A stretch of 64,000 nucleotides of DNA from Escherichia coli (GTDB taxonomy: Bacteria > Pseudomonadota > Gammaproteobacteria > Enterobacterales > Enterobacteriaceae): assembly GCF_048403405.1 (NCBI RefSeq), contig NZ_CP183129.1. One strand, written 5' to 3'. Under the pieces are notes generated by a model that was given only the letters and a program-made list of their open reading frames with translations, was not told the origin of the DNA and did no database searches. Both the position numbers and the translations under genes were made by a program. This document shows, piece after piece, positions 41,633 to 42,645 of the stretch; the first letter of the stretch is position 1; each line of letters starts with the position of its first letter.

Positions 41633-42645
41633 CTATCCAAAAAAATGGTCCCAGGCATTACCAGCCCACTCGATAAGTTTGTCTTTACCCTTACGGGTAA
41701 GCTCTTTGACAGGCTTTGGTAACGGAAAAGAATCAATAACGTCGTCGAGTATCCCGGAGATTACGCTGCCGAAGCCGTTTTTTGCTTCCGTCTTGACCTC
41801 TTCGGTTTTGAACTCATCCTTAAACTGCGAAGCCGTGCTACTTTTAGCCCGATCAGGCAAAGCCCGAATAATAGTCTCTACCAGACGAAGAATGTTGTAG
41901 CCCTCATCGGCGGAGACAGGTGTCACCGGATAGTGCGTAAAACCAAATCGTTCAGTAATGTAGGCTTCTTTCTTTTCGATGTTGATGCGCTGTGCAGGAG
42001 ATGGCTGATGCAGATGAGTATCCCACTCGCGGAATGGCTCAATTTTATCAACCTGGTTAAGGACGAATAAAACGCGCTCACCCCCACCAGCAGGGAGCAG
42101 AACATTGTTGTAGAAATGCTCATCCGCAGAAAAGGCCCGATCGTCACCTTTTATTACCCACAGGATGAGATCCAGGGAGGGAAGCAAATTGCGGTATAAA
42201 TCTTCATACTCCTATCCCGCCGGGCATTCTCACCGACACCAGGTATATCAATTATCTTCAGCGAATGTTTTCCGAAGCGTATATGCAATTCCTGAACTTC
42301 ACGAGTACATGCCTCAACGTCGCTAACTGCACAAACCTCCCCTTTAAACAGCGCATTACATACGCTGCTTTTCCCCGCGCCAGTTTTTCCCATGGCACCA
42401 ATCACGGGTTCATAGTCGATGGCTTCACTGATTTTGTTCAACAGCTTTTCCCGCAGTGGCTGAGGGAAAATATCAAGAATATCCCTGATGTCGGGTATGT
42501 GCGGTGTGCTATCACCTTTTTGCTCGTTGCTACCATTACGTTCTGGAAATATATTGCTCCACATTCCCAAAATCCCGCCTTCCCTTCTGGTGACGCCACT
42601 GGCATCAGTAATCATCCGGCCTTCGCCCTTTACCGGGTCATCCAT
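41633..42645 (-). pseudogene. YeeP/YfjP-family ribosome-associated GTPase, split by a frameshift into two overlapping ORFs
   Basis: Upstream ORF (42154..42645) carries the P-loop GAMGKTGAGKSS and DIPGVGE switch motif; downstream ORF (41633..42187) carries the rest (…NQVDKIEP…). They overlap in different frames around 42154-42187. Confidence 0.7.

Follow-up and report, generated by a model that had tools for sequence, protein, structure and literature searches.

An Inherited Single-Base Deletion Splits a YfjP/YkfA-Family GTPase Gene in a Genomic Island of Escherichia coli

Organization of the GTPase Locus

The window analyzed here, a 64,000-nucleotide stretch of an Escherichia coli genome (contig NZ_CP183129.1), carries on its minus strand a pseudogene of a YfjP/YkfA-family GTPase (41633..42645), which is 1013 nt long, compared to 1014 nt in intact alleles. 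The pseudogene was already known, since RefSeq annotates the same span (41633-42645) as "GTPase family protein; frameshifted", and in this respect the case is an ordinary one. The gene is represented by two open reading frames (ORFs). The upstream ORF (42154..42645, minus strand) starts with an ATG at 42645, ends with a TAA at 42156..42154, and codes for 163 amino acids: native residues 1-144 and, after D144, 19 out-of-frame residues, RSMKIYTAICFPPWISSCG. The downstream ORF (41633..42187, minus strand) codes for 184 amino acids from its first start codon, a TTG at 42187, and is contained in a reading frame (41633..42211, minus strand) that encodes native residues 146-337. The two ORFs, which differ in frame, share 34 nt (42154-42187); the initial annotation, which described two halves in different frames with a short overlap, had placed them exactly. 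The two halves can be aligned over their whole lengths with a single protein family, well beyond what would be expected by chance.

The lesion was located by alignment with the intact 337-amino acid allele of strain Nissle 1917 (WP_000342613.1), followed by a coordinate check. The window allele differs from the latter by one 1-nt deletion and two substitutions (at 42500 and 42395), which bears out the single-nucleotide indel suggested earlier. One A is lost from the AA pair of codon 145 (AAG), changing GATAAGGAG to GATAGGAG (GAT AAG GAG to GAT AGG AG); the single remaining base is at 42213 (minus strand), ca. 26 nt upstream of the ORF overlap in gene orientation, and thus slightly outside the interval of about 42150-42200 in which the indel had been expected. 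The TAG (42214..42212) that closes the downstream frame on its upstream side is created by the deletion itself. When the frameshift was repaired in silico, the gene translated as a full 337-amino acid protein. Eight complete E. coli genomes match the whole region at 100% identity, while many other genomes, including that of Nissle 1917, are 99.8% identical, have one extra base, and contain a single 337-amino acid ORF.

The pseudogene is flanked by intact genes transcribed in the same direction. Upstream, separated by a 39-nt gap from the GTPase start codon, is a gene for a regulator with HTH and WYL domains (42685..43368, minus strand). Its product is a homologue of K-12 YfjR (42% identity, E 2e-56), with weak Pfam matches to HTH_11 and WYL that both fall short of the gathering cut-off, and a PADLOC WYL match (E 1.9e-16). 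Downstream, starting 11 nt past the GTPase stop codon, is a gene for a 261-amino acid hypothetical protein with a signal-peptide-like N-terminus (40836..41621, minus strand), which is probably co-transcribed with the GTPase gene. This protein belongs to no Pfam, NCBIfam, or PADLOC family, and its C-terminus matches phrog_36014, a family of unknown function. A promoter and terminator scan of 40400-44100 returned no more sites than shuffled sequence, and is therefore neutral as to operon structure. The product of a further neighbor, a 317-amino acid protein (38139-39092), was considered as a YfjH homologue and rejected, as there was no similarity.

The Encoded Protein Is a Predicted GTPase

The intact allele is similar over its full length to two K-12 proteins in BLASTP comparisons, YfjP (120/285 identical residues, 42%, E 4e-76) and YkfA (122/282, 43%, E 3e-78), and to the K-12 YeeP fragment (48/142, 34%, E 1e-25). 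The assignment of the gene to the YeeP/YfjP family of GTPases made in the initial annotation therefore stands. The 163-amino acid ORF alone passes the threshold of Pfam PF01926, MMR_HSR1, the 50S ribosome-binding GTPase domain (48.2 bits against a cut-off of 21.9, E 1.3e-12), and the 184-amino acid ORF on its own has no Pfam match. NCBIfam returned 17 matches, all far below the cut-offs, the best being Der (54.5 against 306.7 bits); Era scored 43.6 against 237 bits.

All four G motifs are present in the DNA: GKTGAGKS (G1), T114 (G2), DIPG (G3), and NQVD (G4). The G1 motif, or P-loop (residues 86-93, 42367..42390, minus strand), and the G3 motif, or switch II (residues 133-136, 42238..42249, minus strand), are in the upstream ORF. 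The G4 motif, an NKxD variant (residues 197-200 in the intact protein, 42047..42058, minus strand), is set apart from G1-G3, and in the window is in a different frame. A database search found 1727 relatives at E <= 1e-5; among the 120 of them that were listed, the named ones were nearly all from Enterobacterales, and most were ca. 291-296 amino acids long. In an alignment of 29 members, G1, T114, and an extended G3 (DxPGVGE) are invariant. In the P-loop, G86, K87, G89, G91, K92, and S93 are invariant and T88 is nearly so; G4 takes the form NQxD, with Q198 and D200 invariant and N197 nearly so. Many other invariant residues lie past the break. The subfamily to which the window gene belongs has an extra N-terminal extension of ca. 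50 residues.

In an AlphaFold2 model of the intact protein (mean pLDDT 78.8), a disordered N-terminus is followed by a G domain and a C-terminal helical hairpin, and the break maps to a helix (residues 141-157) directly after switch II. A Foldseek search of the PDB with this model placed Irgb6, Irga6, Era, Toc34, and GIMAP7 on top (E ~1e-7, TM ~0.4-0.5), a predicted resemblance that is at the level of fold class only. Like these TRAFAC GTPases with helical extensions (Era/Der, Toc34, GIMAP, Irga6/Irgb6), the modeled protein combines an MMR_HSR1 G domain with α-helical C-terminal elements; it differs from them in that identity is 12-24%, rmsd is mostly 9-12 Å, TM is only ~0.5, and the NCBIfam thresholds are far off.

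The gene of the window thus has the full-length homology, the G motifs, and the island-backbone location (see below) of the family, but not a single uninterrupted ORF, and we regard it as a pseudogene member of the YfjP/YkfA/YeeP family of predicted GTPases. In the literature searched, there was no functional study of yfjP, ykfA, or yeeP; the genes appear in gene lists, and yeeP as a neutral integration site.

The Deletion Is an Inherited Allele

The initial annotation left a choice between a decaying gene and a homopolymer sequencing error. Only two bases long, the A tract at the lesion is not a homopolymer, and homopolymer slippage is ruled out for this AA to A change. A sequencing or assembly error of another origin, in which case the true genome would have two A's and one intact 337-amino acid ORF, had to be considered on its own merits: single-base indels are the commonest assembly errors, and an assembly-specific frameshift does exist in a neighboring gene of the same module (see below). 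To survey public genomes, an 81-nt probe centered on the lesion was run against 208 genomes carrying the gene. Eight matched at 99% identity or higher (100% among the matches listed), and the other 200 matched at 95-99%. The deletion is common to all eight complete genomes with this allele, which are of diverse laboratory and geographic origin (Japan, USA, Egypt, and others), and is absent from 200 of the 208 gene carriers. Exact-sequence look-up of the 163-amino acid frameshift product, aberrant tail included, found it on 421 public contigs from several sources (NCBI, ENA, Logan); the exact 184-amino acid downstream ORF was found on 431. RefSeq labels the GTPase gene as frameshifted in all three carrier records compared. 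Finally, the deletion is accompanied by later structural differences, an IS2 insertion in strain MS 69-1 and a different chromosomal site in strain 98205.

A single ORF restored by resequencing, named in the initial annotation as the outcome that would speak against a pseudogene, is found in no independent assembly of this allele, since the same deletion is present in eight complete genomes and its exact product on 421 contigs. Thus, the deletion is a genuine inherited allele and not a sequencing error; the latter is effectively refuted already, and we assign it a negligible probability. Of the two possibilities originally offered, the decaying gene is the one that holds. Over 25 kb of flanking core genome, identity to the window is ca. 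100% for six of the carriers, compared to 98.5-99.0% for the next-best genomes; the six therefore represent one clone. The frameshift allele is a lineage marker for its clone and island.

An opposite case was encountered in the neighboring gene. In the Nissle 1917 record NZ_CP022686.1, a 4-bp deletion (TTGG) frameshifts the WYL gene at the equivalent of window positions 43256-43259 (5437-6116 in the compared segment). A probe specific for this deletion matched 1 of 182 genomes, NZ_CP022686.1 alone; being confined to a single assembly, the deletion is an assembly artifact or a laboratory variant. Close to the WYL gene in this record, DUF932 and AAA-ATPase genes are frameshifted as well. The two lesions together provide a clean example of an inherited frameshift (lineage-wide, not in a homopolymer, on hundreds of contigs) as opposed to an artifact (the WYL deletion of one Nissle assembly). 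A scheme of reciprocal loss, in which a toxin-regulator pair would have lost the WYL gene in Nissle/ST73 and the GTPase gene here, was ruled out, as the Nissle deletion is found in one assembly.

The same survey bears on reversible ON/OFF frameshifting, that is, on the GTPase gene being a phase-variable contingency gene. Some island-encoded E. coli genes are phase variable, and the fim switch is present in the same window. Against this, there is no simple-sequence repeat at the lesion (AA only), all eight carriers are in the OFF state, and no complete genome at 99% identity or higher shows a difference by the indel alone, of the kind that a switching tract should generate; the next-best alleles differ by two SNPs as well. 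Phase variation is, in our estimate, vanishingly improbable.

Predicted Consequences of the Frameshift

Translation from the native ATG (42645) would read 144 residues, including G1, G2, and G3, after which the shift of frame would add the 19 unrelated residues before termination at 42156..42154. The predicted upstream product would be devoid of NQVD (the G4 motif for guanine specificity), of the G5 region, and of the helical hairpin at the C-terminus. It lacks the invariant residues E146, Y147, L150, Y151, D159, W163, K166, D168, R170, Q198, and D200, among others. The downstream frame lacks both a native start and a suitably spaced ribosome-binding site: the AGGAG sequence is unfit to serve the TTG codon because it is ca. 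20 nt upstream, which is too far. Native residues 145-153, a segment with four positions that are invariant across the family, are in neither ORF. Given the lost motifs, the missing start and ribosome-binding site, and the residues absent from both ORFs, neither piece should bind or hydrolyze GTP normally, and the gene is most likely inactivated to a null, as far as can be judged from its sequence. Low-level reinitiation at the TTG, or some function of the fragments, would be a remote possibility. A polar effect on the downstream 261-amino acid gene would also be possible.

The gene could, alternatively, still be functional if its product were made by programmed frameshifting or transcriptional slippage, or if two separately translated halves reassembled. 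The deletion makes a Shine-Dalgarno-like AGGAGU containing a rare AGG codon, and such elements and rare codons can stimulate frameshifting, as in prfB and dnaX; the overlap of the ORFs would, in addition, permit coupled translation. However, neither a slippery heptamer nor an A/T run is present, and the TAG in the target frame is exactly at the lesion (42214..42212), so that the frame could be restored only by a −1 slip on AGG in which the tRNA does not re-pair. A programmed shift would be expected to be conserved, yet the ORF is uninterrupted in 200 of the 208 carriers and in all 29 aligned members; the slippery site and the conserved frameshift that mark prfB- and dnaX-type cases are thus both absent here. 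Reassembly of two halves is countered by the distance of AGGAG from the TTG, by the absence from both chains of residues 145-153 with their four invariant positions, and by the placement of G1-G3 and G4-G5 on separate chains, with the cut made inside a helix of the modeled G domain. Programmed frameshifting, a split gene, and phase variation were rejected on these sequence grounds, and we consider continued function of the gene very improbable.

Selection on Intact Alleles and Age of the Null Allele

Nine divergent alleles were chosen to span the range of identities (DNA identity of 95.5-98.3% for the three-gene region). All nine lineages have an intact 337-amino acid GTPase gene, as does Nissle 1917, as well as an intact WYL gene and an intact downstream hypothetical gene, and the order WYL > GTPase > 261-amino acid gene is kept in all nine. 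Pairwise dN/dS values among intact GTPase alleles were 0.09-0.35, which indicates that these alleles are under purifying selection; the gene, therefore, normally does something. Apart from the deletion, every nucleotide of the window allele is also found in intact alleles: most alleles have H49, and A84 is shared with an intact allele. A signal of relaxed selection after the frameshift was looked for in the window allele and was absent, there being no private substitutions. In the absence of any other private mutation, the window allele represents a young null, one base from the wild type. As such, it is a natural null that can be used to probe the function of the uncharacterized YfjP/YkfA GTPase family.

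The best explanation of the evidence, in which we have high confidence, is that this genomic-island GTPase gene is a genuine null allele that arose recently and has been inherited vertically. The loss would be due to neutral decay, with the null allele fixed in one E. coli clone and present in a related island copy at a second chromosomal site. The host island is itself eroding: it contains an integrase pseudogene, an IS3 transposase pseudogene, and several gene fragments.

The loss could instead have been selected. The lesion would be just as real, so this is a variant nested within the explanation above, but it would have spread because the GTPase is costly or harmful, for example as an effector that is toxic or resembles those of abortive infection. 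The purifying selection seen in intact alleles is in keeping with such a scenario, as are the abundance of the null allele (on 421 contigs) and its persistence in two chromosomal contexts, the density of defense genes in the island (BREX, an embedded HEC-01 pair, AbiE, and CbtA/YeeU), and the occurrence of immunity-related GTPases among the closest solved structures. Only one inactivating event is seen, however, with none of the nine sampled lineages broken and the deletion absent from 200 of 208 genomes; what looked like a second hit in the module, in the Nissle WYL gene, is confined to a single assembly. The abundance of the allele can be explained simply by a successful clone, and no defense-family model matches beyond the G domain. 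We therefore consider selected loss unlikely.

An extension of this idea would make the trio of YfjR-like WYL regulator, GTPase, and secreted 261-amino acid protein an uncharacterized module of CP4-57-like islands, in which an Irg/Toc34/GIMAP-like switch acts in island maintenance or phage defense and its knockout is a selected loss. Searches for membership in a defense system (PADLOC, NCBIfam) returned only sub-threshold G-domain or generic WYL matches for the module. This reading seems doubtful to us, but we leave it open because the gene order is intact in nine of nine lineages, dN/dS is low (the range given above), the island is rich in defense genes, and the structural matches include immunity GTPases. 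As for the intact protein, we infer from fold and context that it is a nucleotide-dependent switch encoded in the conserved backbone of CP4-57-like islands and co-expressed with a secreted protein and a WYL regulator of the YfjR type.

Comparison with Known Island and Defense GTPases

The nearest known counterparts are in K-12. The putative GTP-binding proteins YfjP (CP4-57) and YkfA (CP4-6) share with the window protein full-length homology, the G motifs, and a C-terminal ...W-D-x-F-F, and their islands share a backbone of AlpA, YfjJ/YagK, DUF932 (YfjQ/YafZ), RadC, and CbtA/YeeU, with a YfjR-type WYL regulator nearby. The window subfamily differs in its length (337 amino acids, compared to 287) and in the ca. 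50-residue N-terminal extension, which is predicted to be disordered. Gene order differs too, being yfjP-yfjQ-yfjR in CP4-57, whereas in the window the WYL gene, the GTPase gene, and the gene for the secreted 261-amino acid protein are adjacent. Lastly, the window copy is frameshifted.

The textbook pseudogene yeeP of K-12 (CP4-44) is of the same family, with 34% identity over its surviving 141-amino acid C-terminal fragment. Since it is likewise an inactivated island GTPase gene, the family appears prone to decay. While yeeP is a 426-bp remnant from which the whole N-terminal half has been lost, the window gene retains its full length, and its one 1-nt lesion is its sole private change; it is thus a much younger pseudogene than yeeP.

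The dynamin-like GTPases of the Eleos defense system, LeoA and LeoBC, gave weak, sub-threshold G-domain matches with PADLOC (LeoBC, E 3.1e-11; LeoA, E 1.2e-7). These matches aligned ca. 150 of ca. 600 profile positions, and the NCBIfam LeoA model scored 15.8 bits against a cut-off of 325. The window protein is half the size, paired Leo genes are absent nearby, and we do not place it in Eleos.

Context and Decay of the Host Island

According to the annotation of the identical region in strain 4621, the GTPase gene is located in an integrative island beside a truncated nanS and adjoining the fim operon. The backbone of the island consists of genes for AlpA, a YfjJ/YagK-type protein, DUF932, RadC, CbtA/YeeU, and DUF4942, and its defense cargo includes AbiE, a type 1 BREX with an embedded HEC-01 (AriA-like ATPase) pair, and a small PDC-type cluster. 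The gene had been described as a prophage gene, which is apt only in the loose sense in which the K-12 CP4 elements are called cryptic prophages. No phage structural (capsid, tail) genes are annotated in the island; tblastn of the GTPase against 50,697 phage records gave one match only, at 28.5% identity over 36% of the query; and a PHROGs search returned only weak families of unknown function. With no structural genes and no close phage homologue, the host element is a degraded integrative genomic island, not a true prophage. A Serratia homologue of the GTPase is found in the same kind of island backbone, another homologue adjoins an integrase gene, and a Providencia copy lies beside type VI secretion-type genes.

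A seventh carrier, strain 98205 (NZ_CP173546.1), matches window positions 35231-64000. It has the same GTPase, IS3, and integrase pseudogenes, which in this strain adjoin cadC-cadBA-lysS (the pheU side) rather than nanS/fim. The breakpoint lies inside a conserved backbone gene, that for DUF4942 (window 34929-35783), which suggests that homologous recombination between sister islands, rather than integrase-mediated movement, is behind the arrangement. OZ121091 shows the same truncated match (window 35231-55000) and is presumed, from this match, to share the arrangement of 98205.

Several other features of the island can be described. The type 1 BREX locus (48092-63007, minus strand) is complete, with genes for DUF1819 and DUF1788, brxC, pglX, pglZ, and brxL. 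A two-gene insert between pglX and pglZ (52775-54459) constitutes a defense system nested in another: its 373-amino acid ATPase matches PADLOC HEC-01A (E 1e-181; weaker matches are AriA, AbiLi, and GajA-like), and its 189-amino acid partner matches HEC-01B (E 5e-100). Between the WYL gene and an IS3 remnant there is a four-gene cluster of unknown function (44037-46181, plus strand). It includes a 90-amino acid CxxC protein that matches PADLOC PDC-M14A (E 4e-9) and a 97-amino acid GIY-YIG ORF that matches the first ca. 90 of 212 positions of PDC-S57 (E 2.5e-28); because only this part of the profile is matched, the ORF may be truncated, perhaps by the adjacent IS3. The frameshifted IS3-family transposase pseudogene (ca. 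46673-47778) contains an Rfam match (46934-47075, minus strand; 136.9 bits over the full model length) to isrN, an Hfq-binding island sRNA. An AbiEi/AbiEii toxin-antitoxin (abortive infection) pair (33524-34928, minus strand; PADLOC E 1e-126 and 3e-53) has as its neighbors a gene for an HNH endonuclease (32272-32922) and a fragmentary gene for a phosphorothioate-DNA-dependent restriction endonuclease.

At the right end, the tyrosine integrase pseudogene of the island, with a frameshift and an internal stop, occupies window positions ca. 63576-64000 and continues beyond (45576-46843 in comparison record L004). Further on is a second island backbone (DUF957, DUF5983, CbtA/YeeU), so that the region is a tandem array of degraded islands. 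A search for tRNA genes within the window found none. At the left end, the island junction truncates nanS, the gene for sialate O-acetylesterase (31284-32264, plus strand; 13506-13850 in record L004). RefSeq marks nanS as incomplete, yet the window still has an open 326-amino acid ORF with a SASA domain, which presumably reads on into island sequence. The core flank, in a part of the window unrelated to the GTPase gene, contains a gene for a 1746-amino acid inverse autotransporter, IatD (2004-7244, plus strand), with a Pfam IAT_beta domain and 8-9 Big_1/Invasin_D3 repeats.
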